From: a virus
Taxonomy: Duplodnaviria > Caudoviricetes
Length of the DNA stretch: 64,000 nt
IMG/VR virus record: IMGVR_UViG_3300033066_000802
Coordinates: 1-64,000 of that record
Reading direction: 5' to 3' (one strand)
Shown here: positions 2,900 through 16,982 of the stretch, piece by piece
Layout: each line of letters opens with the position of its first letter
Position numbering within the stretch: position 1 is the stretch's first letter
Notes under the pieces: model-generated
What the model saw: the letters and a program-made list of their open reading frames with translations, nothing else
Database searches by the model: none
What the model was told of the DNA's origin: nothing
Program-made: the position numbers and the translations under genes

Positions 2900-3361
2900 T
2901 TAGATTAATATACGGTCAAGAATCTTTTTGAAAGTAGCCATGTCATACTGACCATTGTACTTCTGCTTAAACGCACCTGTTGTTTTACCTGGTAAAACAT
3001 TACTTGGTACACCACCTAATGTCGGTATTATGGCACGTATTCCAGCCTCAATTTCAGCTTCTGTCATCTGCGCTGGTAAGTATGATTGAAACACCAACAT
3101 TTCAGCTGTTTCAGCCGCTACAAGGTCAGCACGACCACCTTTTTCAAATTGAGCTATAGAGTCCTGACGCTGTTTAATAGCCTTTGTTATAACCTTTAAA
3201 ACATCATCATCGGTTAAAACGACCTTACCCTTATCGGTAAGTTCAGCTTTTGTTATTTCGTTCTTAAGACTATTTAACGCAGCCTTGGTAACTTTGGTGG
3301 CTTCACCACCCTTCCATGCGATAATATAATCCGCATTTATTTTATTCTGTAAAGTAGACAT
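2900..3361 (-). CDS. YqeY / GatB-domain protein
   Basis: KQRQDSIAQFEKGGRADLVAAETAEM...YLPAQMTEAEI signature. Confidence 0.88.
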   Translation of the reverse strand: MSTLQNKINADYIIAWKGGEATKVTKAALNSLKNEITKAELTDKGKVVLTDDDVLKVITKAIKQRQDSIAQFEKGGRADLVAAETAEMLVFQSYLPAQMTEAEIEAGIRAIIPTLGGVPSNVLPGKTTGAFKQKYNGQYDMATFKKILDRILI

Positions 3362-3920: not shown

Positions 3921-4395
3921 TTTGTATTTCTTTTTTAACTGCTGTTAATATTTCACCTAACCAGTTCGTACCACGCCAGTTGGTTGGGTCTTCTATACCT
4001 GGTGCGTCTTCCGATAACCCAATACCCCAAATAATATCTTTAGGTGATGCTTCAACTAATAAACGATCTCCAGTACCTAACAATTCAGCTTTAAGTTTTG
4101 GGTTTTGTGTAAATTTAGCATAATTGGCATCGAATACAAATTGTTTACAATTAGCTTCCCATATCGCTTTATCAAAGTTTCTTACTTTACGACCCCAATC
4201 TTGTTGATCCCTTGGATGTTCTTCATCCATAATTAAATCAGCTGTTTCGTGATCACCAAATAACATGGCTTTCTTATACATCATGTACTGTTCAGCACAG
4301 TTGAATTTCATACCATCTATTACAAATGGGTAATGGCGTTTCCATTGGGAAAATGAACCATTCCAGAAGAATACATATTTATCTGTAACTTTCAT
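3907..4395 (-). CDS. NADAR (YbiA-like) ADP-ribosyl/N-glycosidase
   Basis: FSQW, AEQYMMYKKA.LFGD, KFTQNP.L...LL.TG...LVEASP.D.IWGIG, G.NWLG motifs. Confidence 0.92.
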   Translation of the reverse strand: MKVTDKYVFFWNGSFSQWKRHYPFVIDGMKFNCAEQYMMYKKAMLFGDHETADLIMDEEHPRDQQDWGRKVRNFDKAIWEANCKQFVFDANYAKFTQNPKLKAELLGTGDRLLVEASPKDIIWGIGLSEDAPGIEDPTNWRGTNWLGEILTAVKKEIQNERN

Positions 4396-4398
4396 ATA

Positions 4399-4725
4399 TT
4401 AATTTTTATAAATTGCGATTTGACTTTGACCTGAAGAATCTTTCCAGACCTTACCACAGATGTTTGGTTCTGGTTTTTCTTTTTTGGTTTTCACTTTTGA
4501 TTTTGGCTTATCATCCAACTCACACCATTCAGGTATTTCACATTCCTTTTTCACATTATATGGTCTACAAGCAACTGTAACATTTCGATTCGACTTTTTA
4601 CAAAATACCTTTACATCATCATGACAGAACCAATCATCTGGGTCAGGATCAACCTGAACCACGTGAAAAGGACAGTCTGTACAATTTTTTATTTCAAGTA
4701 CCTTCGTCCCCATATTCTTTTTCAT
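4399..4725 (-). CDS. Hypothetical Cys-rich protein
   Basis: CTDCPF...IPEWCEL; follows promoter at 4743-4774. Confidence 0.65.
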   Translation of the reverse strand: MKKNMGTKVLEIKNCTDCPFHVVQVDPDPDDWFCHDDVKVFCKKSNRNVTVACRPYNVKKECEIPEWCELDDKPKSKVKTKKEKPEPNICGKVWKDSSGQSQIAIYKN

Positions 4726-4742
4726 AAAATCAAATTAGACTA

Positions 4743-4774
4743 CAAATTTAAGGAGAAATTTTGATATAAACAAA
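4743..4774 (-). promoter_or_regulatory. Bacteroidota-type housekeeping promoter (-33 TTTG / -7 TAnnTTTG)
   Basis: Minus strand TTTG-N20-TAAATTTG. Confidence 0.75.
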
Positions 4775-4857
4775 TTTATTTCAAAAAATAATCTAAAAAA
4801 GAAAAACCAGAAATTGTACAATAAAGCTACTCACCTTATTATATAAAATCTGGTTTA

Positions 4858-4931
4858 TTGTGTTACAGTGGGTTTCGATCCCTTTCTAAGATGTCCACAA
4901 CATCTCGTGCTACCATTACACTACAGTAACC
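4858..4931 (-). tRNA. tRNA-His(GUG)
   Basis: Cloverleaf, AGATG-TT GTG GA-CATCT, G-1. Confidence 0.8.
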
Positions 4932-4944
4932 ATGTTAATTTTGT

Positions 4945-5018
4945 TGGGGTCAAGCACGGTATTGATCCGAGTTCTCTTGATTCACAGTCAAGCACATCAC
5001 CTTAATGCTTCAAGACCC
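4945..5018 (-). tRNA. tRNA-His(GUG)
   Basis: CTTGA-CT GTG AA-TCAAG; encoded CCA. Confidence 0.8.
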
Positions 5019-5027
5019 ATGTTATTC

Positions 5028-5102
5028 TGTAGCCCCTGGCAGAATCGAACTGCCGCTTCCACTTTGTAAGAGTGGCACACTTAACCACTATGTTAAGGGG
5101 CT
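5028..5102 (-). tRNA. tRNA-Val(UAC)
   Basis: CCACT-CT TAC AA-AGTGG; TTCGATT T-loop. Confidence 0.85.
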
Positions 5103-5105
5103 ATA

Positions 5106-5642
5106 TCACCAACCTTCAATTTGTGCGTGTCTAATTCTATGGCAATTGGCGCATAGTATCGCACATTTATCAAGTTCATTTGTTATTTTATCCCAAGATT
5201 GATATTTGATTTTATCAAAGTTTGGGTCTTTTTGTTTAGGTTCAAGATGATGAAATTCAAAAACAGAATAATGTGATTTTTCAAGTTTCAACTCACAATC
5301 TTCACACTGGTTGCCCTTATAACTAATCATTTTAAGTTTAACCTCTTTTACTCTATTAGTATGATATGCATTACTACATTTCTTACAATAACCACCAACA
5401 TCATTTCTATTTATCCTTTTGTAAAAATCAATTAATGGCTTAACCTTTTCACATTTTGGACAAAATTTATCAACTCTATCTTTTTTATTATATTGATTAG
5501 TTTTTGTTTTTAATTCAAAAGTATTTAACCAATATTTTACACTACCTTGTGAACATTTAAGTTCATCCGCAATTTTTCGTTGGGAATAACCCAGCTCTAT
5601 TAAATTCACCAATACATCTTTTTCCATGATAATAAATATCAC
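5106..5642 (-). CDS. HNH homing endonuclease (HTH + Zn-finger + HNH)
   Basis: CxxC pairs, FHHLEP..KD, LCANCHR; probable start MEKD at ~5627. Confidence 0.88.
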   Translation of the reverse strand: MIFIIMEKDVLVNLIELGYSQRKIADELKCSQGSVKYWLNTFELKTKTNQYNKKDRVDKFCPKCEKVKPLIDFYKRINRNDVGGYCKKCSNAYHTNRVKEVKLKMISYKGNQCEDCELKLEKSHYSVFEFHHLEPKQKDPNFDKIKYQSWDKITNELDKCAILCANCHRIRHAQIEGW

Positions 5643-5660
5643 TCACTTTAGAAAAAGATA

Positions 5661-5687
5661 ACTCTGAACCAACTGAGCTATACGGCT
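5661..5687 (-). pseudogene. Orphan tRNA 5' fragment (acceptor strand + D-arm), probably Val
   Basis: AGCCGTA-TA-GCTC-AGTTGGTTCA-GAGT ends abruptly at the HNH cassette. Confidence 0.75.
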
Positions 5688-5781
5688 AAATTTCTACCAG
5701 TTACGATTACCACAATTACGTAACGCCTCGCTCGCTAACGGAGCCGTTCTTTTTACGGGGTGGATTAAACTATGATATCCC

Positions 5782-5862
5782 TGTGCGCCTGGTTGGGTTC
5801 GAACCAACGACCCCCTGGTTAAAAGCCAGGTGCTTTAATCTACCAATCTGAGCTACAAGCGC
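5782..5862 (-). tRNA. tRNA-Lys(UUU), enlarged D-loop
   Basis: CCTGG-CT TTT AA-CCAGG. Confidence 0.88.
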
Positions 5863-5962
5863 ATTATTTAAATGTCTACTATAATATGCTTTTTGGGTAC
5901 CAGCGACCATTTTGCATAATTTAATATTCATTTCAACATAAAACAAAACGTCATATGTTGCT

Positions 5963-6037
5963 TGTGATCCCACAGGGATTCGAACCCTGAACCCGCTGGT
6001 TAAAAGCCAGCTACTCTACCAATTGAGCTATAAGATC
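5963..6037 (-). tRNA. tRNA-Lys(UUU)
   Basis: GCTGG-CT TTT AA-CCAGC. Confidence 0.9.
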
Positions 6038-6110
6038 GTGTGAGAGTATAGTTTGTTAAGCTATATGTTCACGCTGTTAGGCAGACATCCTACAATTTAG
6101 ATGAACTCTC

Positions 6111-6186
6111 TGGTGGTTCCACAGGGACTCGAACCCTGAACCCGCTGATTAAGAGTCAGCTGCGCTGCCAGTTGCGCCATGAAACC
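6111..6186 (-). tRNA. tRNA-Lys(CUU)
   Basis: GCTGA-CT CTT AA-TCAGC; encoded CCA. Confidence 0.92.
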
Positions 6187-6190
6187 AAAT

Positions 6191-6219
6191 AAAAAACCCC
6201 CGATTTTAGGTCAGGGGTT
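6191..6219 (-). terminator. Intrinsic terminator (attenuator 1) immediately before tRNA-Lys(CUU)
   Basis: AACCCCTGA-CCTAAAA-TCGGGGGTT-TTTT. Confidence 0.8.
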
Positions 6220-6245
6220 GTAAAGATCTTAGTTATAAGATATCC

Positions 6246-6326
6246 TTAGAAGTCATCAAAATACTCCCCCGTTAACACAAAGTGTTTCACATGTTTACTA
6301 TGTTTGACTATGACTATCTTTTTCAT
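6246..6326 (-). CDS. Putative attenuator leader peptide 1, MKKIVIVKHSKHVKHFVLTGEYFDDF
   Basis: 26 aa ORF between promoter and terminator; 12 of codons 2-17 are Lys/Val/His, the downstream tRNA isotypes. Confidence 0.75.
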   Translation of the reverse strand: MKKIVIVKHSKHVKHFVLTGEYFDDF

Positions 6327-6359
6327 CTTATTATATTTTTATTCGTTTTTTAAAATTAC

Positions 6360-6413
6360 AGGTTGTGCTTGTTTTTCGCTAAAAGAAAGTTTTTAATTTG
6401 CTGAATACAACCT
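6360..6413 (-). ncRNA. Stem + CAGCAA module RNA (stand-alone)
   Basis: AGGTTGT-ATTCAGCAA...TTTC TTTTAGC GAAA...AAGC-ACAACCT. Confidence 0.6.
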
Positions 6414-6428
6414 CATTAATAATTAGTA

Positions 6429-6460
6429 CAAATGTACGCAATGTTTTCGAAATAAACAAA
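6429..6460 (-). promoter_or_regulatory. Bacteroidota-type promoter of the Lys/Val/His tRNA block
   Basis: TTTG-N20-TACATTTG. Confidence 0.78.
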
Positions 6461-6535
6461 TTTATTTCAAAATTTATTTTTCTGGCTCAAAAAATCACTA
6501 ATTTGAGCTTCAAATCATACTGGGATTAAAAGAAT

Positions 6536-6609
6536 TGTGACTCCACAAGGAATCGAACCTTGATATGTTCTTTAGAAGAGAACCGCTCTATCCATTGAGC
6601 TATGGAGCC
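6536..6609 (-). tRNA. tRNA-Arg(UCU)
   Basis: GTTCT-CT TCT AA-AGAAC. Confidence 0.88.
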
Positions 6610-6698
6610 AAGTTTTGAAATTCACCAGCCACATCAGAAAAGCTGTCCATTCTGCGTAGTTTAAAGGATACCGTTACAGCCCTAACCTACTGGTTTTA

Positions 6699-6971
6699 TT
6701 ATTTACAAGCTGTTATTTTATTCCAAAGTTTTTTATCAGCTATACTTTTTTTACGACCATACCATCTAATACTACGCATAAAACCCATATTTTCACCTAT
6801 ATAATGAGCGAGGAAACTCTCAATAGATTGAGATTGATCCACACGACCATCCGATTTTCTACGCATAAATAATTTACCATCACAAAACTTATAATCCCAA
6901 TATTTTCGTATTTTTTTTAAAACCTTAATATTCATAACCATTAATTTTTTTACTCGTACTAATAAAATCAT
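6699..6971 (-). CDS. Hypothetical basic protein
   Basis: ORF track; likely start MNIK ~6935. Confidence 0.55.
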   Translation of the reverse strand: MILLVRVKKLMVMNIKVLKKIRKYWDYKFCDGKLFMRRKSDGRVDQSQSIESFLAHYIGENMGFMRSIRWYGRKKSIADKKLWNKITACK

Positions 6972-7236
6972 TTACAAACTTATCCACCACTGATAAATAT
7001 TCCCCATTAATTGAGTACTTCACAAATTTACCATCTTTAATAACTTTTATGATATTTGCCTTACGTAATATTGCAAGATGTTGTGACATTATTGACACTT
7101 CAAGATGCATTATTTTACTCAAATCAGTAATGTTCATATCTTTATTTTTAGATATGTTTTTTAATATCTCTTGCCTGGTTCTATGATTTAGAGAACGTAG
7201 GATCATTGACACCTCTTTTACTGACACATAATTCAT
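6925..7236 (-). CDS. ArsR/SmtB-family HTH transcription regulator
   Basis: LRSLNHRTRQEIL...SQHLAILRKANII...GKFVKYS; start moved to MNYV because 7254 lies inside a tRNA. Confidence 0.85.
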   Translation of the reverse strand: MNYVSVKEVSMILRSLNHRTRQEILKNISKNKDMNITDLSKIMHLEVSIMSQHLAILRKANIIKVIKDGKFVKYSINGEYLSVVDKFVNDFISTSKKINGYEY

Positions 7237-7238
7237 AA

Positions 7239-7313
7239 TGGTACCGATAAACAATTTTGAAATGTCGTCCTCACCCTTATGAGGGGTGCGCTCTGCCTCT
7301 GAGCTATATCGGT
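7239..7313 (-). tRNA. tRNA(CAU), probably Ile2 (lysidine type)
   Basis: CACCC-CT CAT AA-GGGTG (Ile-type anticodon arm); encoded CCA. Confidence 0.78.
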
Positions 7314-7556
7314 ATTAACTGGCATAGCTTTCATCACCAGTGTAGTAGTGCTTGTATAACTACTTTGATCGACTCGTCCCCTTAGCCATCGATCAATGCG
7401 CCATTTCAACCGTTAATTACTCGGCTTACTACAAGAGTTATAGGTAACACCTATCAGTTAAAAAATTGGTACGTTCTCAGATTCCTCTATCTAATCAGTA
7501 CCTGTCCCTAATGTTTGAGGTGAAGGAATTCCTCAAACCTGTCAGAGGGGACTTTC

Positions 7557-7631
7557 GAGCAGGTAATGAGATTCGAACTCACAACTTCCGACTTGGAAGG
7601 ACGGCACTCTAACCAATTGAGCTACACCTGC
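7557..7631 (-). tRNA. tRNA-Gly(UCC)
   Basis: CT TCC AA loop, U73; nt 8-10 (TAG) are the stop codon of the upstream HNH. Confidence 0.88.
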
Positions 7632-8050
7632 ATTGTTTTTTGTTGATAATGTAAATCCCTATGACAGTTAGAACATAATACAACACATTTATTTATTTCA
7701 TCTAATATTCGTTGTTTGTTAGCTGTTTTTACTAAACTTGAAACATCAATATCTTTTTCATTCGGATCAAGATGATGAAAATCTAAAACCCAATGTCTAT
7801 CCTCACCACATTTAGTACAAGACGAATTTTGTTTTATTTCTAAAACCCAATTAATAATATTTTGATTATAAATTTTAGCCTTATCAATATACTTTTGCTT
7901 ATTATTAATATAATGCTCACGTCTATAATTTTTTTGACATACCCGACACAAAGATTGATGATATTTTACTCTTCTATCTGTTCGACTCGCAAAATATTCA
8001 TCAGTCAATGGTATATCTTTTTTACAACCATTACAAAATTTTGTTACCAT
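7622..8050 (-). CDS. HNH homing endonuclease
   Basis: CxxC pairs, LDFHHLDPNEKD, LCSNCHR; start MVTK (8107 start lies in a tRNA). Confidence 0.88.
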   Translation of the reverse strand: MVTKFCNGCKKDIPLTDEYFASRTDRRVKYHQSLCRVCQKNYRREHYINNKQKYIDKAKIYNQNIINWVLEIKQNSSCTKCGEDRHWVLDFHHLDPNEKDIDVSSLVKTANKQRILDEINKCVVLCSNCHRDLHYQQKTMQV

Positions 8051-8060
8051 ATCAAAAAAT

Positions 8061-8133
8061 GAGCGGTAGAGTGGAGTCGAACCACCATTTTTGCCTTGGT
8101 AAGGCAATATAATAGCCTTTATACGACTACCGC
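8061..8133 (-). tRNA. tRNA-Gly(ACC), rare A34 anticodon
   Basis: TTGCC-TT ACC AA-GGCAA; acceptor GCGGTAG/CTACCGC, U73. Confidence 0.82.
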
Positions 8134-8472
8134 AATTGAGGCGATGCTTCGGTACGCCTCGATTCCCTATTCACCCATTTATAGTGACACCAGAAGCTTC
8201 TGTTTGTTCATTCCCTCGCTACTAATCGGTTGCCATACGACCAAGAATTCCAGATCCTGTTGGATCAACTCCTTTCGGAGAACGCCATGAGCAGCGCTAA
8301 TAATTGATTTTCATTTCGTTCAATTACTAAAACACGGTTGACTTTTAATGAGTTCCCCTCTCAATATTTTTAAAGTAGTCCCTGAGCAATAGACTCTGTA
8401 CCAGCGCTGATACCTATTGGGGACTCATGTTACGTTACATCTTATGATGTAAGAGGCTTTACACGCCACACT

Positions 8473-8546
8473 GAGCGGCAGACTGGATTCGAACCAGCGA
8501 CCTGGTACTTGGCAAGCACCTGCTCTACCAACTGAGCTACTACCGC
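8473..8546 (-). tRNA. tRNA-Gly(GCC)
   Basis: GCC anticodon, GCGGTAG/CTGCCGC acceptor, U73. Confidence 0.9.
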
Positions 8547-8823
8547 AAATAAAGTCAGAGGCTTGTGGGAATCCGATAACCTCGGCTGTACACACCTTTC
8601 GCTGATTGCTCAACTACACACGCTTGACTTTAAAGCTTACAAAAAACATCTTATCCCAATGTCATGAGGCTTGCGCCAGGGGAATCCGTTTACCATCCAA
8701 TCGTTTTTAATGAGGGATTGGAACCTCAGCCCAAAATAAAGTTACTAAGGAGAGTGTTCGCTCAAACAGGTAATGAACCTATATTCTCAACACTTAGAGG
8801 TGTTTTGCTACCCTTTTCACTTT

Positions 8824-8948
8824 GTCGCCCAGGATGGACTTGCACCACCGACCCACAGTTCCCATATTAAAATTTTAACTGCGGAACACATTCTCTAACA
8901 GAATGCTCTTTTTTTTTTACTGCTGCTCTGCTACTGAGCTACCAGGCG
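8824..8948 (-). ncRNA. tRNA-like RNA whose anticodon loop is replaced by a ~60 nt insert with hairpin + GTTCCGCA module
   Basis: Acceptor, D and T arms intact; GCAGT/ACTGT stem encloses A10-GAG-CATTCT gttag AGAATG-TGTTCCGCAG. Confidence 0.7.
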
Positions 8949-8962
8949 AATTTTCACTCATC

Positions 8963-9164
8963 GAGATACGATGAATTAGATTTTAACGGCTTTCTTTACT
9001 ATTCAAGAAGCATTCATTTTCATTAGTGTCTTACCACATACAAACCCGTCAAACTATTTGGAAGCTCTGTTACCTGCCCTTGACCCAAACCCCAGTATTT
9101 TAAAGTTACCACCTGGATATTAACTATAACTTTTTAAAGAAGTTACAAACTTGCTGAGTACCTC
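8963..9164 (-). ncRNA. ~200 nt RNA closed by stem + CAGCAA module
   Basis: GAGGTAC-TCAGCAA ... GTATCTC; no ORF. Confidence 0.5.
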
Positions 9165-9173
9165 TTACTCATT

Positions 9174-9194
9174 GCGGGGAGATCAGGATTCGAA
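9174..9194 (-). repeat. Displaced tRNA 3' end; 19 bp direct repeat of 9983-10001
   Basis: GGGGAGATCAGGATTCGAA at 9176-9194 and 9983-10001, flanking the nuclease gene. Confidence 0.85.
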
Positions 9195-9239
9195 AATCGA
9201 ATTTTGATCGAAATTAAACTATTTATTATTATTAATATT

Positions 9240-9926
9240 ATGATGCCACTTTACACTAAATACGAATTTAACTTAGCTAAACCAACAACTAAATTAACCT
9301 GTAAATGTTTATTTTGTAATAAAACTTTTTACTTAACAAAACATCGAATTCAAGCATGTTTAAATATTAATAACAAATCAAATACTGGTGATTTTTGTTC
9401 AATTAAATGCTCCAAATTATCAACAAGTAAAAAAGAAAATGTTAATTGTTTACAATGTAATAATATTTTTCTTAAATCAAAAGCTGAAATTAAAAAATCA
9501 CCTAACCATTTCTGTTCCAAGTCTTGCGCTGCCTCATATAATAACAAACACAAAACCACTGGTACCAGAAGATCCAAACTTGAACTCTACCTGGAAGAAC
9601 AATTAATATTGCTTTATCCAAACATTGAATTTCATTTTAACCGAAAAGACACTATTAATTCAGAACTCGATATCTATATACCATCCCTTAAACTTGCATT
9701 TGAGCTTAACGGTATCTTTCATTATGAACCAATATATGGTACAGATAAACTAAACCAAATACAGAACAATGACATATCCAAATCAAAAGCTTGCTTCGAT
9801 AATCAAATTGATCTTTGCACTATTGATGTGTCTGGTTTAAAATACTTCAAACCAAGCAACGCTCAAAAATACTTAGATATCATTGTAAATATCATAAATC
9901 AAAGAACTTCATTGTTAACCTCTTAG
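9240..9926 (+). CDS. Zn-finger + PD-(D/E)XK/Vsr(DUF559)-like putative homing endonuclease
   Basis: CxxC/FCS..C repeats, SKLE, ELDIYIPSLKLAFELNG.FHY; opposite strand to the tRNAs. Confidence 0.8.
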   Translation: MMPLYTKYEFNLAKPTTKLTCKCLFCNKTFYLTKHRIQACLNINNKSNTGDFCSIKCSKLSTSKKENVNCLQCNNIFLKSKAEIKKSPNHFCSKSCAASYNNKHKTTGTRRSKLELYLEEQLILLYPNIEFHFNRKDTINSELDIYIPSLKLAFELNGIFHYEPIYGTDKLNQIQNNDISKSKACFDNQIDLCTIDVSGLKYFKPSNAQKYLDIIVNIINQRTSLLTS

Positions 9927-9981
9927 CCAGCTTTACCTGTTTCTAACAACAACCACGTAGAGGTGGGTTAACTATGTTATC

Positions 9982-10104
9982 TGGGGAGATCAGGATTCGA
10001 ACCTGAACCTTTTTCTTAACAGGAAATTTTTGAGATAGTGATTTGCCGAACTTATCCACAACTGGATAACTCTTTTTTTAATGCTGCCGTTACACCATCT
10101 CCCC
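9982..10104 (-). tRNA. tRNA-Asn(GUU)-like with ~50 nt insert between D and anticodon arms
   Basis: GGGGAGA/TCTCCCC acceptor; insert A7-GAG-TTATCCA gttg TGGATAA-GTTCGGCAAAT; TTTC-CT GTT AA-GAAA. Confidence 0.72.
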
Positions 10105-10166
10105 GATTGTCTTACAATATTAAGAAATCATTTCGGTAAAACCAAGTGAATTTCAAAACTTTTTTG

Positions 10167-10284
10167 TTGTACACCAAGGAATTGAACCTTGCCCTTTCGA
10201 TTATGATTCGAAGTTTCTGTTGATTGCTGTATTAAACCCCTACGGGTTGTTTGAGATAACGTGCTACCGCTACACCAATGCGCA
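10167..10284 (-). tRNA. tRNA(CAU)-like with ~45 nt insert between D and anticodon arms
   Basis: Insert AACCC gtag GGGTT-TAATACAGCAATC; TTCGA-AT CAT AA-TCGAA; weak acceptor stem. Confidence 0.65.
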
Positions 10285-10378
10285 AGATAAAAAATATGAA
10301 GTAACTCTGTCAATCTAAAGTGTGCCGTTTACGCCAACGCTTGTTGGTTTCCATACTGACCCTTCTACTTCATATTTA

Positions 10379-10417
10379 GAGCCTCTGATAGGACTCGAAC
10401 CTACAACCATCTCCTTA
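10379..10417 (-). pseudogene. 3' half of a split tRNA (probably Thr)
   Basis: TAA-GGAGA-TGGTT-GTAGG TTCGAGT CCTAT-CAGAGGC; acceptor complementary to fragment at 10979-11010. Confidence 0.85.
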
Positions 10418-10427
10418 AAATTCTTTT

Positions 10428-10501
10428 GAGCCGCTAACAGGATTCGAACCTGCACACCCTGATTACAAGTCAGGAGTTCTACCAATTAAAACTATAGCGG
10501 C
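10428..10501 (-). tRNA. tRNA-Thr(UGU)
   Basis: CCTGA-CT TGT AA-TCAGG; nt 8-10 TAG is the HNH stop. Confidence 0.9.
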
Positions 10502-10920
10502 TTATTTAAATTGACCGTCTTTCTCCATTTTCTACCCTTACCTCTACTTTTATAGTAAGGTGTTAATGAATGACAATTAGGGCATAATAATTCCAAATTA
10601 TTTAAGTCATTATTTTCAGGATTACCATCAATATGATTTAATTCAATAGGAATCTTATTAGTAAATTTATTAATTTCGCACCAACCACATTTCATACATT
10701 TATTTCCATGTGTTTTAATTAAAAATCGTTTACCAACCCTTTCAATCGTATCTTTTCTACCCAAATCATCAAATTCACCAGACATAAATTTATCATATCG
10801 TAATTTATTTTGATATTCCGCTTGACACATATTATTACAATATGTATTTCTATTAGCGATTGTCTTTGAGCAATTCAAACACGTTTTTCCAATTTTTCTC
10901 TGTTTCTCATGGTCAACCAT
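10492..10920 (-). CDS. HNH homing endonuclease
   Basis: CMKCG, IELNHIDGNPENNDLNNLELLCPNCHS. Confidence 0.92.
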   Translation of the reverse strand: MVDHEKQRKIGKTCLNCSKTIANRNTYCNNMCQAEYQNKLRYDKFMSGEFDDLGRKDTIERVGKRFLIKTHGNKCMKCGWCEINKFTNKIPIELNHIDGNPENNDLNNLELLCPNCHSLTPYYKSRGKGRKWRKTVNLNKPL

Positions 10921-10978
10921 TTACTATTATAAATAGTGGTCAACCGATGAGAATTCAGATTCTAAGAACTTTTTTTCT

Positions 10979-11010
10979 GAGTTGCTCTACCAGTTAAGAG
11001 CTACAGAGGC
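10979..11010 (-). pseudogene. 5' half of the split tRNA (probably Thr)
   Basis: GCCTCTG-TA-GCTC-TTAACTGGTA-GAGC-A-ACTC. Confidence 0.85.
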
Positions 11011-11130
11011 ATTTCAACTTTTAGATTAACCCCAGAGTTGACAACTGTGCTGGCATACGATCCAGAGGCAAGGTTTCACCGTTCTTATGAGAGGTGTGCC
11101 ACATCTTCGCTCCCTTGCGCTTCGGGCTTT

Positions 11131-11217
11131 TGTAACGGCAGTGAGATTCGAACTCACGTTCTCTTTCGAGTTAGGGGTTATGAGCCCCCGCTGGTACCAT
11201 CTCCAGTCGACACCGCA
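11131..11217 (-). tRNA. Initiator-like tRNA(CAU) with long variable arm
   Basis: GGGGG-CT CAT AA-CCCCT; 1:72 mismatch; variable arm AACTCGAAAGAGAAC. Confidence 0.7.
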
Positions 11218-11304
11218 ATTTATCTTATAAATATACTCATCATTGATAAAGTTGTAAATACTTAGTAAAGTAATTCACTTTATTAATCAAAAATAAGTTT
11301 ATTA

Positions 11305-11381
11305 TGGCGGGAACAGAAAGACTCGAACTTTCAACCCTCTCGCTAACAACGAGCCGCTCTGACATTAGTAGCTATGTTCCC
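11305..11381 (-). tRNA. tRNA-Asn(GUU)
   Basis: TT GTT AG loop, G73, encoded CCA. Confidence 0.82.
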
Positions 11382-11468
11382 AATTTGTAAGGCTACCAAA
11401 TCCTTACGTGGAGGCTATTAGAAGGGTGTTTTCGACCTTGCCTCATTCTCCCCTTACGGTCACAGGTT

Positions 11469-11669
11469 TTAATATTTTAAACTACCACACAATATATCCA
11501 TTTCAACACCATTATCAAATCGTACCGCAACAAAGTCATCAAAACCACCCATACTACCGAATTTTGTATCTGGTACTGTTGTACCCATAACACCCTCAGT
11601 AAGTTGTTCATTATACTTAGTTAAATCCGTAATCAATTGTACTCTTTTTGGTGTACCTCCGTACTGCAT
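11469..11669 (-). CDS. Small hypothetical protein (SH3/KOW-like)
   Basis: 66 aa; RV.L...G..GTT...VAVRFDNG pattern. Confidence 0.55.
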   Translation of the reverse strand: MQYGGTPKRVQLITDLTKYNEQLTEGVMGTTVPDTKFGSMGGFDDFVAVRFDNGVEMDILCGSLKY

Positions 11670-11808
11670 AACAATAATTTAAAGATTAAAAAAATTGCTG
11701 TCTATTCCATGCCGCCAACCGTTTAATCTATTTGAAACGGTAAAAGTCAACTAAAGGTTACTTATCTTATTTTTACAGCATTAAGAACCAAGTTAAGAAT
11801 CAAGCTAT

Positions 11809-11881
11809 GTTGCGAGAGAAGGATTTGCACCCCCGACCTTCGGGTTATGAGCCCGACAAGCTACTACTGCTCTATCTCGCA
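11809..11881 (-). tRNA. tRNA-fMet(CAU)
   Basis: TCGGG-CT CAT AA-CCCGA (three G-C pairs); 5' end overlaps HNH C-terminus. Confidence 0.85.
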
Positions 11882-12439
11882 ATTTAATATTTTCAATATT
11901 CCATTATCGAACTCCCAATGATGATTTGGACATAACGCCATTAAATTATCGATATGGTTAATTTCTTCTATAGTACTATTATCACAAAAATCGGAAACCG
12001 CTTTAATGTGCGCCACTTCGTAGTGATTATGGTACCCACAATAACAACAAATTTTCAATTTATCAGACTCGTTGAAAACGTAGTTAGCATGTTTCCGTAT
12101 ACTCGTCCTGGCTGACTGCCAATTCTTATGTTTACTAAAAATCTCAGATTTGGTTAGTCCTGTTAAAAATTTAAACGGCATTTTAACTTTAACCGTTTTT
12201 GATTGCTCAATCTTTACTTTTTTAGAATTGTTGTATGATGCAGCACAACTACGATTACAAAACTTTCTAACTCTAACCTCTCTGGTTTTTTCGTGAGACC
12301 TTACCTCAATTATTTTTTCGCAATAATGGCATTTATTTGGATTCTGGTAATACCTTGCTAACGCTCGTTCACGTTGTTTTGCGTTACCAATGGCTGCGGC
12401 TTTTTGATGTTTATTCAGTTCCATACATATAAATAGCAT
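11864..12439 (-). CDS. HNH homing endonuclease
   Basis: FCNRSCAA Zn finger, EVAHIKAV...NHIDNLMALCPNHHWEFD; probable start MELN at 12424. Confidence 0.9.
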   Translation of the reverse strand: MLFICMELNKHQKAAAIGNAKQRERALARYYQNPNKCHYCEKIIEVRSHEKTREVRVRKFCNRSCAASYNNSKKVKIEQSKTVKVKMPFKFLTGLTKSEIFSKHKNWQSARTSIRKHANYVFNESDKLKICCYCGYHNHYEVAHIKAVSDFCDNSTIEEINHIDNLMALCPNHHWEFDNGILKILNCEIEQ

Positions 12440-12460
12440 AGAACTTTCGAAAATACCATC

Positions 12461-12484
12461 CGCTACACACTGCTCTACCCCGCT
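12461..12484 (-). pseudogene. Orphan 5' fragment of tRNA-fMet
   Basis: AGCGGGG-TA-GAGCAGTGTGTAGCG; can pair with the acceptor 3' strand at ~11811-11817 with a 1:72 mismatch. Confidence 0.78.
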
Positions 12485-12489
12485 ATATT

Positions 12490-12693
12490 TTAATTTATAT
12501 AAGCAACATTATCTTTTACTTCAACAGATGATGCATACCCCCTCATAACCAAATGAGGTTGTGTTTTACTCCATTTAGTTTCACACGGAACACCACATTT
12601 AATGTCCTGGGCAATTAAACATTGATTTCTGAAATGCACTGTCATTGCTTTATTAATTTTGTTGAAATGATAAAAAAACCTATATTTTTTCAT
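12490..12693 (-). CDS. Small hypothetical phage protein
   Basis: MKKYRFFYHFNK...CETKWSKTQPHLVMRG; 12762 start lies in a tRNA-like RNA. Confidence 0.65.
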   Translation of the reverse strand: MKKYRFFYHFNKINKAMTVHFRNQCLIAQDIKCGVPCETKWSKTQPHLVMRGYASSVEVKDNVAYIN

Positions 12694-12707
12694 TTGTTTA
12701 TTTTTAA

Positions 12708-12827
12708 TAGATGTGTACTGGATTCGAACCAATGTCTGAGGTGGCTTTACGCTATCGACCAAGATAAAAGGGATTTGAACCCTATCGCTACCTGACTCCC
12801 CAATTTTACCGTTAAACTAACACAACA
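12708..12827 (-). ncRNA. tRNA-like RNA with anticodon loop replaced by an insert containing a second T-arm
   Basis: GTTGTGT/ACACATC acceptor, D arm, ATTGG TTCGAAT CCAGT T arm; insert has AGGG TTCAAAT CCCT. Confidence 0.6.
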
Positions 12828-12829
12828 TG

Positions 12830-13012
12830 TTATGTCTTTGATGCTTCAATTGATATATCATTAAATACTGCTGATGTTGAGTTGTAACGTTCATGTGTTT
12901 CAATCGAAACGTTTACTTTAATTTCACCAGTTCCTTTGAAACCTATTGATTCCAAATGTTTTTTAATGATAGCATCGAGATCTTTCTTATCGAATTTAAT
13001 TGTTGTGGTCAT
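12830..13012 (-). CDS. Small hypothetical protein
   Basis: 60 aa ORF after promoter at 13029-13060. Confidence 0.6.
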   Translation of the reverse strand: MTTTIKFDKKDLDAIIKKHLESIGFKGTGEIKVNVSIETHERYNSTSAVFNDISIEASKT

Positions 13013-13028
13013 AAAATATTCCTTTCAG

Positions 13029-13060
13029 CAAAGTTACGAAAAGAATTTGAATTCACCAAA
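13029..13060 (-). promoter_or_regulatory. Bacteroidota-type promoter internal to the tRNA array
   Basis: TTTG-N20-TAACTTTG. Confidence 0.65.
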
Positions 13061-13081
13061 CAAAACCCAATATTTCTTTAA

Positions 13082-13158
13082 AGCGGATGTGACGGGACTC
13101 GAACCCGCACCACGCACCGTGACCAGGTGGCATTGTTATCCAATTCAACCACACATCC
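13082..13158 (-). tRNA. tRNA-Asp(GUC), atypical G33
   Basis: CACC-TG GTC AC-GGTG; G73. Confidence 0.8.
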
Positions 13159-13162
13159 ATTA

Positions 13163-13318
13163 GTGGCGACAATGGGAGTCGAACTCATAATCTCTGGGTT
13201 ATGCCCCCAGCGTGGTCATCCTCTCCGTTTAGTTACTTCTACCTTGTGTAATATTCCACTCAGCTTATTCATCTAAACATCCTTTTATCGAGGATTTTCC
13301 AAATTTCACTCTATCGCA
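13163..13318 (-). tRNA. Initiator-like tRNA(CAU) with ~80 nt insert in the D-loop
   Basis: TGCGATA/TGTCGCC acceptor (1:72 mismatch), GTG/CAC D stem, CTGGG-GG CAT AA-CCCAG. Confidence 0.65.
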
Positions 13319-13332
13319 TGATAAGTGTTTAT

Positions 13333-13770
13333 TTACTTTGTTAATTCTCGCATTTTATCGATACAACTATTAATCGAAAATCTTAAAAGAAGATCTGTTA
13401 ATATTTCAACAGTACCAATACCACCATAAGATTCAACCAGATTATTTCGCCATTTCCCACTTTTTTCATCTACACGATATAAATACCCATGTCCTTTATG
13501 AAAGGTAAATACAAAATCGGCTGATGCTGGTCTATCGTCATTATATGAACTCCTGATATCCAAGTGATAATTCAATTTTTCAAACAACGCCCAAATTTTT
13601 TCATTAGCAATATCACCTTCATTAGAATCCCTATTACCAGACATATCAAACCTTAAGTGTTCTGGTTGTTCATCTGGTAGATATTCTTTAGACAAATCTT
13701 GTCCGAGTGTCTTTCTAACAAAAGCCTCTACGATAGCTTTCATTTCTTCTGTAATACTTGTTAATAACAT
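13333..13770 (-). CDS. Hypothetical protein
   Basis: 145 aa ORF between tRNAs. Confidence 0.7.
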   Translation of the reverse strand: MLLTSITEEMKAIVEAFVRKTLGQDLSKEYLPDEQPEHLRFDMSGNRDSNEGDIANEKIWALFEKLNYHLDIRSSYNDDRPASADFVFTFHKGHGYLYRVDEKSGKWRNNLVESYGGIGTVEILTDLLLRFSINSCIDKMRELTK

Positions 13771-13786
13771 ATATTTTTTTTAATTA

Positions 13787-13861
13787 AGCGGGAAACAAGG
13801 GGGTCGAACCCTCAATCTCTACCGTGACAGGGTAGCATGTTACCATCAACACCTCGTTCCC
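13787..13861 (-). tRNA. tRNA-Asp(GUC)
   Basis: CTACC-CT GTC AC-GGTAG. Confidence 0.88.
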
Positions 13862-13869
13862 AATATTTT

Positions 13870-13945
13870 TGTAGCCACGACCAGATTCGAACTGGTATTT
13901 TAGGTTTAGGAAACCCACGTTCTGTCCAGTTGAACTACACAGCCA
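13870..13945 (-). tRNA. tRNA-Arg(CCU)
   Basis: TGGGT-TT CCT AA-ACCTA. Confidence 0.85.
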
Positions 13946-14150
13946 TTTTTTTGCCGCCATACCTATTTTTTAATATTTTAGTTGGTAACCCTGATTGGTG
14001 ATCATCAATGAATATAACCAATGATTCATGTTTTACTATTTGATAAGCTTCACCAGGGAAATCATTCAAACTAATTTCTTCAAACGGTTTATTCCTATCG
14101 TAACCAGGAAGATCTTCTCTAAAATAAACTAAACAAGTTGTTTTTAACAT
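13935..14150 (-). CDS. Small hypothetical protein
   Basis: 71 aa; stop codon is nt 8-10 of tRNA-Arg(CCU). Confidence 0.6.
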   Translation of the reverse strand: MLKTTCLVYFREDLPGYDRNKPFEEISLNDFPGEAYQIVKHESLVIFIDDHQSGLPTKILKNRYGGKKMAV

Positions 14151-14163
14151 AATTTAAAATTTT

Positions 14164-14239
14164 TGCGGAATAGAAGGGACTCGAACCCTCGACCTTCGCA
14201 GTGACAGTGCGATATTGTAACCAGCTCTACTACTACTCC
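14164..14239 (-). tRNA. tRNA-Asp(GUC)
   Basis: TCGCA-CT GTC AC-TGCGA. Confidence 0.88.
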
Positions 14240-14333
14240 GTTTTAAAAAATCTTTCAGACTCACTTTTTTGCTCCTTCTATGCGGAAACACATATGGATG
14301 AAGTGGTTGTCGTATAACATATTTTTTAGGGTC

Positions 14334-14536
14334 GAGATTCCAACCTCGTTTAACCAACCCACATTTATGCCACTGGACACGCAATGTATTCGTTTCGGTT
14401 TCCCGACTTTACCTACCACACAGTGACTCAGGTTTTTAAACCAAAAATATGTGATAACACTGCTCGTAACTTTCCCTTTCGGGTGCCAGACTACCTTAGA
14501 ACCGTTAGTTTGCAAATTGATGCTGTACTGAATCTC
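14334..14536 (-). ncRNA. ~200 nt RNA closed by stem + CAGCA module
   Basis: GAGATTC-AGTACAGCATC ... GAATCTC; internal GAAA-loop hairpins (CCC GAAA GGG). Confidence 0.55.
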
Positions 14537-14548
14537 ATAAAGATTTTT

Positions 14549-14622
14549 TGCTCTTGTGGAGAATTTCGAAATCTCGACTTAACGCTTAACAGGCGTTTAC
14601 TCTACCTCTGAGTTACACAAGA
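14549..14622 (-). tRNA. tRNA-Asn(GUU)
   Basis: AACGC-CT GTT AA-GCGTT; G73. Confidence 0.88.
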
Positions 14623-14626
14623 ATTT

Positions 14627-14776
14627 TTAAAGTTCACCCAAAGCTTGTTTGATAATTTTCTTATCTAACATCCTTCTTTTAGATGATGTTAATTTTTTAC
14701 TGAATGCTTTGACGTGTTTTGCCCATTCGCCATTCAGGATGGAGTTGATTTTACTCCCTGGTCTAATTTTTCCCAT
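14627..14776 (-). CDS. Small basic protein (49 aa) MGKIRPGSKINSILNGEWAKHVKAFSKK...
   Basis: Below ORF-track cutoff; clean ATG-TAA between RNA genes. Confidence 0.55.
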   Translation of the reverse strand: MGKIRPGSKINSILNGEWAKHVKAFSKKLTSSKRRMLDKKIIKQALGEL

Positions 14777-14973
14777 AGTTAATTAATGAAATTTGATTCA
14801 TTGGACAATGGTGCGTCACTATTATTACCCTCATAACGTCTTGCGCCACCTGAGATTTGCACTCGGAATCTGGGCTTGTCATGCCTCAGCGGGTTAACTT
14901 TTCTAATAGATCGTTCTGCAAACATGGTATAGTTCATGTAGACTTTTCGTTGTTAAAAATTATTTTTCAATTA

Positions 14974-15051
14974 TGTGTGCCTTTCTGGAGTCGAACCAGA
15001 CACCTAATGATTATGAGTCATTCGCTCTCACCTACCATGAGCTAAAGGCAC
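14974..15051 (-). tRNA. tRNA(CAU), probably Ile2
   Basis: AATGA-CT CAT AA-TCATT; paired 1:72. Confidence 0.8.
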
Positions 15052-15284
15052 AAGGATAATGTAGGTTGACTACCCGTTTCGGTCAACTATTGAGTGCTTC
15101 TTCAGTTTTACGAGCGCTCGGCACAGGGTTCTATTTTCTTTTAACCCACCTTGGTTGTCGACACCGACAGTGGAGAAAATCTACATTAAAAACTTTAATT
15201 TTTCGCCCCCTTTCCGTAGTAGTCCAACGGTCATGTGTTAGCCTCACACACTTCATCACTAAATGATAAGAGGCGAAAAATTGT

Positions 15285-15359
15285 TGTGGTAATGATCGGT
15301 TTCGAGCCGATTCCTCAAGATTTTCAGTCTTGCGCTTCTACCAAGTTAGCTTCATCACC
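15285..15359 (-). tRNA. tRNA-Phe(GAA)
   Basis: CAAGA-CT GAA AA-TCTTG. Confidence 0.88.
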
Positions 15360-15406
15360 TGTTTGAGAGTTCCATACATCCAGGAAGTATACTCACAACC
15401 GACCTA

Positions 15407-15482
15407 TGGTGGTAACGGATGGAATTGCGCCACCGACACGCTGCTGTTCAGGCAGCTGCTCTACTAACTGAGCTACATCACC
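15407..15482 (-). tRNA. tRNA-Phe(GAA), atypical C37
   Basis: GCTGC-CT GAA CA-GCAGC; encoded CCA. Confidence 0.82.
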
Positions 15483-15719
15483 AATTTATACTGTAGTCCC
15501 ATGATTAAAGACCTTTGGGTATTAGTATGCGGAACGGTCATGCGCCATACTACAGTATCATCTTCATTTCAGACTATTGAACGATGAACTCAATAATCTA
15601 TAAATACCGTAACGTTCTTTTACTGCTACTTGGATATTATTTTTCACAGACTCATCGTAGGTCAAGCCTACGAACAAAGGGAATTCTTATTGCTAAGTTG
15701 TCTTTGTAGTAATCTTTTA

Positions 15720-15751
15720 CAAAAGTAAGTCTTTATTTTTATTCTACCAAA
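15720..15751 (-). promoter_or_regulatory. Bacteroidota-type promoter (internal)
   Basis: TTTG-N20-TACTTTTG. Confidence 0.65.
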
Positions 15752-15768
15752 TATTTGGTGATATATTT

Positions 15769-15963
15769 TTATTTGTATGTAACACCTCTTTTTTTCTCAT
15801 CGTTCAAGAACTTAATTTCCTCAACAAGGTGATTGAATTCATCTTTACTTATAGAATTCTTTTCAACTTTTGTAAGTTTCGAATAATCGAAGTTAATGTC
15901 TGTCCAAGACGATTCCAGTAATTTTAATACTGAGTGCCATACACCTATGTTTACTTTTCTCAT
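15769..15963 (-). CDS. Small hypothetical protein
   Basis: 64 aa; own promoter-like motif at 15968-15999. Confidence 0.6.
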   Translation of the reverse strand: MRKVNIGVWHSVLKLLESSWTDINFDYSKLTKVEKNSISKDEFNHLVEEIKFLNDEKKRGVTYK

Positions 15964-16072
15964 TTTACAAAGGTAAACATAATTTCATTAATCACCAAAT
16001 ATCTGATAGATTTTTTTTCTTTTATCCCAATATGTCAAAGATCTTTAACTATAAAACCTATGTCTTATAATC

Positions 16073-16150
16073 TGTGGGACTACGAAGGGGTTTGAACCCT
16101 CGACCACCAGAACCACAATCTGGCGCTCTACCAACTGAGCTACGTAGTCC
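16073..16150 (-). tRNA. tRNA-His(GUG)
   Basis: CCAGA-TT GTG GT-TCTGG; G-1:C73; CCA. Confidence 0.92.
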
Positions 16151-16164
16151 ATTTTTAATCTCAT

Positions 16165-16192
16165 AAAAAAACCCCAGCTTGTGACTGAGGTT
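16165..16192 (-). terminator. Intrinsic terminator (attenuator 2) immediately before tRNA-His
   Basis: AACCTCAG-TCACAAG-CTGGGGTT-TTTTT. Confidence 0.8.
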
Positions 16193-16216
16193 CCTTCGTA
16201 ATCTGCTTTTTCTTCT

Positions 16217-16300
16217 TTATGAAAGCACATGAGGAACCCTGGTCGGGTGATCATTCACTCTACCAAACGTAAATCCTATATTTATCATATGCTTTTTCAT
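16217..16300 (-). CDS. Putative attenuator leader peptide 2, MKKHMINIGFTFGRVNDHPTRVPHVLS
   Basis: 27 aa ORF between promoter and terminator; codons match the 9 downstream tRNA isotypes. Confidence 0.78.
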   Translation of the reverse strand: MKKHMINIGFTFGRVNDHPTRVPHVLS

Positions 16301-16340
16301 CGAAGATGTTTAAAATTTTACTTGTTATTAATAATTAGTA

Positions 16341-16371
16341 CAAAAGTACGAAAAGTTTTCGAAAAAACAAA
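16341..16371 (-). promoter_or_regulatory. Bacteroidota-type promoter heading the main tRNA block
   Basis: TTTG-N19-TACTTTTG. Confidence 0.78.
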
Positions 16372-16407
16372 TCTTTTTTCAAATATTTTTTATTTTAATT
16401 TGTTTTA

Positions 16408-16860
16408 TTAACTTTTTACTATTTTGTCAGCAGCATAAGTTGCAGCCCAAGCATTTGGTTTACCAGCAGCTTGATATCCTTTTGATATCGCATAACCAAT
16501 ACCCGAATCATACAATTCATTTGATCTTTCGGAAATCTTTGAGTTGTAATCGCAGTGAATTGTTATTGGTATACCAAGATCTTTTATTTCATCAGCAACC
16601 TGTACAGCTTTTTCAACTTCTGCCCAAAGCCTCATATTATTTGTTGGTTTTATGGCTTCAGTTGAACGTCTGTCGATTATATGACCACCCTTACCTTGTT
16701 CATAAAGACAAACACTTACACCATAATCAATTTTTCTGTCATGTTGTTGCGAATCACATCCAATGAATATTTGGATATTTGGTTTATTCTTTACCCACAA
16801 TTTAACATATTCTTTAAGGTCAGGTATTACAACACCCTGCCTTGTTCTGAACTTAGCCAT
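16408..16860 (-). CDS. YkuK-like (DUF458) RNase H-fold protein
   Basis: IFIGCDSQ, GKGGH, RLWAEV, IHCDYN, KP.AWAA...AD. Confidence 0.8.
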   Translation of the reverse strand: MAKFRTRQGVVIPDLKEYVKLWVKNKPNIQIFIGCDSQQHDRKIDYGVSVCLYEQGKGGHIIDRRSTEAIKPTNNMRLWAEVEKAVQVADEIKDLGIPITIHCDYNSKISERSNELYDSGIGYAISKGYQAAGKPNAWAATYAADKIVKS

Positions 16861-16982
16861 AATTTATCATTTTTTACAAAGATAAGTAATGTTTTTGAAA
16901 AAACAAAATTTTTAATGATTTAACTCATCATACTTATTCAACTCAGCAATTAACTGAGATACTGTTAAATATTTTCGTTTAC

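Follow-up and report, generated by a model that had tools for sequence, protein, structure and literature searches.

The window analysed here is the first 64 kb of the 154,611-bp virus record IMGVR_UViG_3300033066_000802 (G+C content 31.7%). Between 4.8 and 16.2 kb its minus strand carries every transfer RNA (tRNA) gene of the record, with five endonuclease-like open reading frames (ORFs; PHROG matches) scattered among the tRNA genes. In this cluster a tRNA-Thr(UGU) gene, which we call the resident gene, is interrupted by an insert that contains a hairpin, a free-standing HNH endonuclease ORF and a second, intact tRNA-Thr(UGU) gene (Table 1). The first-pass annotation had described two halves of a single tRNA around an insert of about 560 nucleotides (nt). 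This is borne out, with an insert of exactly 560 nt, acceptor strands that pair at 7/7 positions and bounds of the halves now placed at 11010–10978 and 10417–10380. The sequence, ARAGORN, Rfam and PHROG likewise agree with its claim that the insert holds TATTTAT, an HNH ORF and an intact tRNA-Thr(UGU) overlapping the HNH stop codon: the stop codon TAG (10494–10492) corresponds to nt 8–10 of the carried tRNA-Thr. ORF and tRNA together leave only 58 + 10 = 68 nt of the insert unoccupied. The completeness of the 154.6-kb record is about 52% according to CheckV. Since relatives with a 75–76% identical DNA-transfer protein are 321–359 kb long, the record is a fragment of a freshwater jumbo phage.

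Table 1. Features of the split tRNA-Thr locus (window coordinates)
Feature	Position	Strand	Basis
Conserved leader directly upstream of the tRNA-Thr slot	11011..11068	-	Comparison with L016, L018 and L052
5′ half of resident tRNA-Thr(UGU): canonical nt 1–31, with acceptor strand GCCTCTG, D arm and 5′ strand of anticodon stem	11010-10978	-	Alignment with intact genes
Insert, 560 nt	10977-10418	-	Read from sequence
Filler, 32 nt: G, seven A, weak AT-rich hairpin	10946..10977	-	Read from sequence
Strong hairpin covering the HNH start codons (arms 10945-10938 and 10918-10911)	10905..10951	-	RNA fold
TATTTAT in hairpin loop	10935-10929	-	Sequence
TATAAT, −10-like hexamer in hairpin loop	10931-10926	-	Promoter-like match
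Free-standing HNH endonuclease ORF, 142 amino acids from ATG 10920	10492..10920	-	PHROG HNH families
Carried intact tRNA-Thr(UGU), anticodon tgt	10501-10428	-	ARAGORN; Rfam, 63.9 bits
A/T-rich linker, 10 nt	10418..10427	-	Sequence
3′ half of resident tRNA-Thr(UGU): loop TAA, 3′ strand of anticodon stem, variable loop, T arm, acceptor CAGAGGC, discriminator	10417-10380	-	nhmmer

The nested arrangement is confirmed as real and as more than a chance juxtaposition. We compared the window with the contigs of four metagenome runs; contigs cannot reveal rare variants. Two riverine runs contain contigs with identical pieces of the region and an aquatic run contains a relative that is 91–95% identical. 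Both junctions are identical in independent riverine contigs (X3, spanning 10852–11002, and X2, spanning 10407–10575), and the entire arrangement is kept in the 91–95% identical relative (run X4) and in the related locus L018; the locus is not an assembly artefact. A joint that skips the insert was found in none of the contigs of the four runs, in which rare variants are invisible. A 296-nt contig of run X4 matches the window at the leader 11011–11068 only and differs from the first tRNA base onward. When the region was compared by megablast with deposited phage genomes, no match was obtained.

Both halves track intact tRNA-Thr(tgt) genes, one up to the anticodon loop and the other from it, and the split gene is thus, to judge from these alignments, a tRNA-Thr(UGU) gene broken in its anticodon loop. 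The 5′ half aligns as far as the 5′ strand of the anticodon stem with the intact genes of L026, L023, L015 and L002, and the 3′ half follows intact genes from TAA (nt 36–38) onward (alignments A1 and A4). A tRNA profile built from the window's own tRNAs recovers the 3′ half by itself (nhmmer, E = 4.8e-5, profile positions 34–75). From the variable loop to the 3′ end this half is identical at 30/30 positions to the intact tRNA-Thr(tgt) of L002, and a pattern search of viral contigs with the 3′ half returns L001 and L002 only. The 20-nt D arm of the 5′ half is found in four metagenome contigs only, as part of an intact tRNA-Thr(tgt) in L023, L025 and L026 and of a tRNA-Lys(ctt) in L024.

The leader that precedes the 5′ half (11068–11011, 58 nt) is 92% identical to positions 15690–15744 of L016 and is also present in L018 and L052. 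In L016, where the DNA-transfer protein is 75% identical, an intact tRNA-Thr(tgt) directly follows the leader, with no HNH gene, and a homolog of the window's next gene (10284–10166) lies 12 nt past this tRNA. The record to which L016 belongs, the complete 321-kb relative G001, contains no homolog of the window HNH. In L052, from another record of 158 kb, the leader is followed by a further, different intact tRNA-Thr(tgt), again with no HNH gene. L018 represents the filled form at the same locus, and presence or absence of the insert is thus polymorphic among related genomes. The split gene thus occupies a conserved tRNA-Thr slot. Relatives with an uninterrupted tRNA, which the first-pass annotation had named as a check on its reading, were in part recovered: an intact tRNA-Thr(UGU) without HNH gene sits at the slot in L016 and L052, but the exact allele of the split tRNA was not found. 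In the relatives, the short hairpins of the leader (window ∼11130–11011, minus strand; L016 15610–15746; L018 480–608; L052 reverse strand ∼11250–11400) differ in sequence and still pair; the leader could act as a processing signal or form a small structured RNA.

The ORF in the insert matches eleven PHROG HNH families (best E = 3.4e-15), and its matches to Pfam HNH_3 and HNH fall below the cut-offs. The catalytic His, Asn and His positions are invariant in an alignment of eight sequences. The cysteine pairs C75/C78 and C113/C116, of the kind that binds zinc around the active site of HNH enzymes, are invariant as well, and the N-terminal cysteine cluster gives a treble-clef-like DUF2116 match. 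By these matches the ORF can be assigned to the HNH (ββα-metal) endonuclease superfamily. Its homologs number 3,458 at E ≤ 1e-10, and a search of the PDB with the HNH protein returned no sequence relative with a solved structure. The ratio of nonsynonymous to synonymous substitution rates (dN/dS) relative to L018 is 0.10, with a dS of 0.44, which indicates that the protein is under purifying selection. The canonical start codon (ATG 10910) is out of frame as a result of a 1-nt deletion relative to L018 and leads to a stop after 11 codons. A further ATG located 10 nt upstream (10920) lies in another frame and reopens the ORF from residue 11 onward; the independent contig X3 is identical here.

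The start codons lie in a hairpin with a predicted RNA folding energy of −17 kcal/mol. This hairpin is found in ten loci, including L018, L020, L027, L028, L038, L043, L047, L035 and L003, in which the arms have changed and still pair (covariation). A hairpin that sequesters the start codon, with a possible promoter in its loop, is a design of T4 homing endonuclease genes, described for I-TevI to I-TevIII, segB and mobE (PMC2988022), and by analogy the hairpin may control late expression of the nuclease. As the stop codon sits inside the tRNA, trimming of the tRNA precursor by ribonuclease P (RNase P) would strip the stop codon from the nuclease messenger RNA, which could limit expression. A sigma-70-like promoter in the hairpin loop of the window was considered as a candidate and rejected, the −10-like match being not above the chance count.

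The DNA around twelve protein clusters that are 58–88% identical to the window HNH was examined. At 59–88% identity the HNH genes of ten of the 11 clusters end 0–6 nt before a tRNA-Thr(tgt) or overlap it. The eleventh cluster (L035) has a whole tRNA-Thr just upstream of the HNH gene and the 3′ half of a tRNA-Thr past its stop codon, and in the 58% identical cluster (L036 and L037) the HNH gene lies between Gly tRNAs instead. The HNH–tRNA-Thr module occurs in at least eight different neighbourhoods, such as after Glu, after Pro plus an ORF, after Phe, after Cys or between reverse-strand ORFs. In the window, L018, L019–L021 and L048–L050 the HNH stop codon coincides with tRNA nt 8–10. The HNH gene and the tRNA-Thr are passed on as a unit that stops sharply at the end of the tRNA. 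This right edge is placed there because L031 and L032, which encode the identical HNH protein P0016, diverge in their DNA just past the tRNA-Thr. The left edge of the module is the hairpin. The carried tRNA, which is the sole tRNA-Thr that ARAGORN finds in the 154.6-kb record, is near-identical to the one behind the 69% identical HNH of L019–L021, with compensatory changes in the acceptor stem. More distant HNH homologs (at most 51% identity, L004–L012) lie beside other tRNAs, and no flanking halves were found around them.

Two further observations concern the contigs that carry this HNH family. The tRNA-Thr(UGU) genes at L003 3418–3503 and at L035 1692–1775 and 1866–1949, all linked to the family, have a long variable arm and a length of 84–86 nt, which is unusual for Thr. 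In the phage contig L027, positions 3006–3068 within a tRNA cluster match the freshwater-1 RNA (RF02979) at the gathering score, and this contig also contains the same HNH–tRNA-Thr module.

A second split gene is found in L035, an independent and unrelated contig with a 63% identical HNH, in which a different tRNA-Thr is broken into halves whose acceptor strands pair 7/7. The order here is 5′ half (1819–1848), whole tRNA-Thr (1866–1949), hairpin, HNH gene (2001–2411) and 3′ half, which starts at TAA three nt past the HNH stop codon. The split tRNA, the carried tRNA and the gene order of the insert all differ from those of the window, and the break falls at the same position of the anticodon loop. 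This recurrence is the main reason to think that the anticodon region of tRNA-Thr(UGU) genes is what the HNH family attacks, and the broken halves would mark the most likely site of the DNA break, in the anticodon-loop region. In L019–L021 nt 1–21 of a tRNA-Thr of the resident type are stranded directly upstream of the module, and this type is intact in L015. L015 was considered as a clean empty site for L019–L021 and was rejected, as the tRNA-Phe genes upstream are in a different order.

The first-pass annotation argued that the insert has no room for a group I core, which holds: 68 nt are free and there is no Intron_gpI match. Rfam searches found no group I or group II intron and no small ribozyme in 4000–17000 at E ≤ 1 or in 10350–11080 at E ≤ 10, nor was an intron or ribozyme found at the gathering threshold in 19 HNH-homolog loci. 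The locus thus has neither the P3–P9 core of a group I intron nor exons that give a functional tRNA upon ligation, and the HNH ORF, which is within neither an intron nor an intein, is free-standing. When the two halves are joined in conserved numbering, only the pairs C28–G42, U29–A41 and C30–G40 form, A31–G39 is a mismatch and the loop is not UGU; the joined halves are thus predicted not to rebuild a Thr anticodon arm. The calls of Lys(UUU), stop(UUA) and undetermined that ARAGORN makes on artificial joins were rejected, as they reflect a lenient stem rule and a poor stem. Because the stretch that follows the 5′ half and the one that precedes the 3′ half are both rich in A and lack complementarity, neither a bulge–helix–bulge nor a guiding helix is possible, and the complementary guide sequences and splicing motif of a Nanoarchaeum-type split tRNA are not present.

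From these comparisons we consider it probable that the locus contains a homing module without an intron, which breaks up the tRNA gene that it targets and provides a spare tRNA. The module consists of the start-hiding hairpin, the free-standing HNH gene and the intact tRNA-Thr(UGU), which starts where the nuclease ORF ends. It sits in the anticodon-loop region of the resident tRNA-Thr(UGU), the two halves of which would remain as non-functional, scar-like flanks. During co-infection the nuclease would cut or nick the intact tRNA-Thr(UGU) of related phages near the anticodon loop, and the donor would then serve as the repair template from which nuclease gene and spare tRNA are copied. With the nested allele in place, the halves and the outer flanks would be available as homology arms, the carried tRNA would supply the tRNA-Thr function, and the interrupted allele would be immune for lack of an intact site. 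Where the nuclease cuts, that it homes and that the spare tRNA resists cleavage are what we infer from the arrangement. The intronless cassette of the first-pass annotation stands as far as the split gene at the slot, the linkage of the module, the lack of an intron core, the carried tRNA as the only tRNA-Thr and the second split gene in L035 are concerned. Destruction of the target would be occasional and not obligatory, because the majority of module copies are intergenic and lack flanking halves.

Several further findings weigh against this interpretation. The junction is unclean: some 5–9 nt of the anticodon loop have been lost or altered, and the 32-nt filler and the 10-nt linker are absent from module copies elsewhere. 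With a loop deletion, a filler and a linker at the junction, the founding insertion was not simple homologous repair. The empty sites in L016 and L052 hold tRNA-Thr sequences that differ from the resident of the window, and an exact uninterrupted allele of the resident tRNA was not found, patterns for the whole tRNA or for the 5′ half being without match in viral contigs. Present nuclease activity is uncertain because of the N-terminal frameshift that is rescued by the upstream ATG. Finally, the flanks are better conserved than the synonymous sites of the HNH gene: relative to L018 the 5′ half is identical at 30/31 positions (11010–10980), the leader at 54/58 and the filler plus hairpin at 62/69, whereas 33% of the HNH synonymous sites differ. 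Possible reasons are that the flanks are constrained or functional, that homing into intact genes has renewed them time and again or that the history of the module is a separate one.

The same structure could be a recombination scar, for which nuclease targeting is not needed: the HNH–tRNA-Thr segment would have entered the resident gene by illegitimate or short-homology recombination between tRNA genes, the cluster being a recombination hot spot, with the HNH as a passenger whose real target lies elsewhere. This is unlikely. In its favour, the cluster is full of tRNA fragments and contains five endonuclease-like ORFs, the junctions show a filler and a small deletion, and enzymes of the SegB type, being relaxed in specificity, cut numerous tRNA genes and cause rearrangements (PMC2330249, PMC13096335). 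Against it, the HNH family is tied specifically to tRNA-Thr(UGU) in at least eight contexts, a second, independent tRNA-Thr (L035) has its break at the same point of the anticodon loop, again around a member of this family, and L019–L021 provide a third case with a 5′ fragment of a resident-type tRNA-Thr directly upstream of the module. It seems distinctly unlikely that the resident tRNA-Thr already had an internal insert, as do 8948–8824, 10104–9982 and 10284–10166, and that the module landed inside it, in which case the A-run and hairpin next to the 5′ half would predate the module. These three nearby tRNA-like genes do hold inserts of 45–60 nt, an A-run and a hairpin stand at the start of two of these inserts, L016 retains two of the genes with compensatory acceptor-stem changes, and in L035 too the 5′ half is followed by A-rich sequence. 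Yet the weak filler hairpin after the 5′ half is not kept in the 91% identical L018, and the intact tRNA-Thr genes have no insert either at the syntenic slot (L016 and L052) or in the close relatives L002, L015, L023 and L026.

A functional discontinuous tRNA, in which the halves are expressed, the nested tRNA is removed by RNase P and 3′ processing in the manner of an intron, and the halves are joined or held by the acceptor helix, is in our judgement very improbable. The good preservation of the halves (30/30 identity of the 3′ half to an intact tRNA and 30/31 identity of the 5′ half to L018 despite an HNH dS of 0.44) speaks for it, as does the Rnl2-family RNA ligase encoded by the complete relative G001. 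Against it, no self-splicing core or ribozyme was found, any join gives three Watson–Crick pairs and an A–G mismatch with a loop that is not UGU, and the A-rich flanks of the break cannot form a bulge–helix–bulge or guiding helix. RtcB and Rnl2 have no match in the 154.6 kb of the record, which is about 52% complete; Rnl1 also has no match there, but this carries no weight as the control matched nowhere either. Some small probability of a functional role is left to the halves because the flanks are more conserved than the HNH synonymous sites and because the Rnl2-family ligase exists in the complete relative. The specific version in which the halves pair via the 7-bp acceptor helix after excision of the nested tRNA-Thr, and a phage RNA ligase seals or holds them as a second tRNA with an altered anticodon loop, is likewise very improbable. 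Were it true, with the halves ligated or held, no split tRNA gene would have been known in a bacterial virus before this one.

As a rule, homing endonucleases avoid doing harm by sitting between genes or in a self-splicing intron or intein. The homing module proposed here would represent a third route to harmlessness for an RNA gene, in which the target is interrupted and a complete spare copy is brought along. Some integrative elements, too, insert into tRNA genes and bring along a copy of the tRNA end that they displace. They resemble the window in that a mobile element in a tRNA gene brings sequence that preserves the tRNA function; they differ in that they use an integrase and replace only the 3′ end, whereas in the window the HNH is the only mobility gene and the tRNA is whole. 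Friedrich et al. are said to have described in 2007 mobE, an HNH gene inserted in nrdA of Aeromonas phage Aeh1 that results in a gene in pieces. This is again a free-standing HNH gene inside an interrupted gene, with no intron or intein and with a regulatory hairpin. The protein halves of Aeh1 reassemble and work, whereas the RNA halves of the window are predicted to be unable to rebuild the anticodon arm, so that function would have to come from the carried complete gene. Translation of mobE is regulated by its hairpin (PMC2988022).

SegB of T4 and T6 is a free-standing GIY-YIG homing endonuclease of the tRNA gene cluster, and it is an example of a phage homing enzyme directed at tRNA genes (PMC2330249; PMC13096335). 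Similar to the window enzyme it is free-standing and lies in a phage tRNA cluster; SegB cuts the tRNA genes of relatives that lack it, is co-inherited with neighbouring tRNA genes and is under control of the hairpin and late-promoter type (PMC2988022). SegB recognises a conserved T-loop motif of many tRNAs, whereas the window enzyme belongs to the HNH class and is tied to one isoacceptor, and SegB is intergenic, with no split tRNA and no stop codon overlapping a particular tRNA. In the intronless homing of T4 SegF and SegG, as it is cited in PMC2330249 and PMC2988022, an endonuclease gene lies beside a resistant allele and both are co-converted into a sensitive genome. The window would share the position of the endonuclease gene next to a resistant allele of the gene that is cut, resistance here being presumed. 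On the account given in these papers, the SegF and SegG target is cleanly replaced by gene conversion, whereas the window and L035 keep both target halves around the module. Mobile group I introns with homing endonuclease ORFs occupy the anticodon loops of bacterial and phage tRNAs (PMC3984707). Here the likeness lies in the anticodon-loop insertion, the endonuclease ORF within it and the immunity, presumed for the window, of the interrupted allele through disruption of the site; the difference is that in the window there is no ribozyme core, the exons cannot be restored and a spare tRNA gene replaces splicing.

In our literature searches we met with no account of a module of endonuclease gene and spare tRNA that lies within a split tRNA gene. 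The broken halves provide a testable target for a very large, uncharacterised HNH family. We suggest that elements of this kind drive rapid turnover of tRNA alleles in phage tRNA clusters, because three relatives with one and the same leader carry three different tRNA-Thr(UGU) sequences at the slot. If the nuclease is specific for one tRNA gene, the module would be a compact natural cut-and-replace system.

Other parts of the tRNA cluster also deserve description. Tandem arrangements of endonuclease ORFs and tRNAs are seen at three further places on the minus strand, where the ORF enters a tRNA or ends just before it (12439–11864 with 11881–11809, 5642–5106 with 5102–5029 and 8050–7622 with 7631–7557). 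Among these, one stop codon lies inside tRNA-Met, one inside tRNA-Gly(UCC) and one 3 nt before tRNA-Val. Two of the three ORFs are preceded by a stranded 5′ tRNA fragment (12484–12456 and 5686–5662), so the layout of 5′ fragment, HNH gene and intact tRNA recurs within the cluster. On the plus strand, antisense to the cluster, an endonuclease-like ORF (9204–9926), matched by PHROG families of HNH and homing endonucleases, lies between two perfect 19-nt copies of a tRNA 3′ end (9176–9194 and 9983–10001). It looks like another insertion that left a piece of tRNA behind.

Four tRNA-like genes on the minus strand (10104–9982, 10284–10166, 8948–8824 and 12826–12709) have internal inserts of 45–60 nt, and those of 10104–9982 and 8948–8824 open with an A-run plus a hairpin. 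Both 10104–9982 and 10284–10166 are kept in L016 (14465–14576 and 15826–15953) with compensatory changes in the acceptor stem and hairpin, which makes them probably functional RNAs rather than debris. Exactly one base past the discriminator of 10104–9982 begins a match to the hepatitis delta virus (HDV)-like ribozyme RF02682 (9914–9981, minus strand), with 35.3 bits against a gathering score of 44 and E = 3e-5 in a search of 241 nt. By analogy with phage tRNA-linked HDV-like ribozymes it would cut out the 3′ end of the 10104–9982 RNA. Also on the minus strand, ARAGORN makes no call at 11215–11135, which resembles a tRNA with a long variable arm and CAU in the anticodon loop, and the 3′ part of a tRNA, beginning in a CAU anticodon loop, stands by itself at 13202–13163. 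A 15-nt motif with TTGACA (16027–16041, minus strand) recurs between the genes of several phage tRNA clusters, with exact copies in the window, L015 and L019–L021 and a near-identical one in L003, and may be a shared early promoter.

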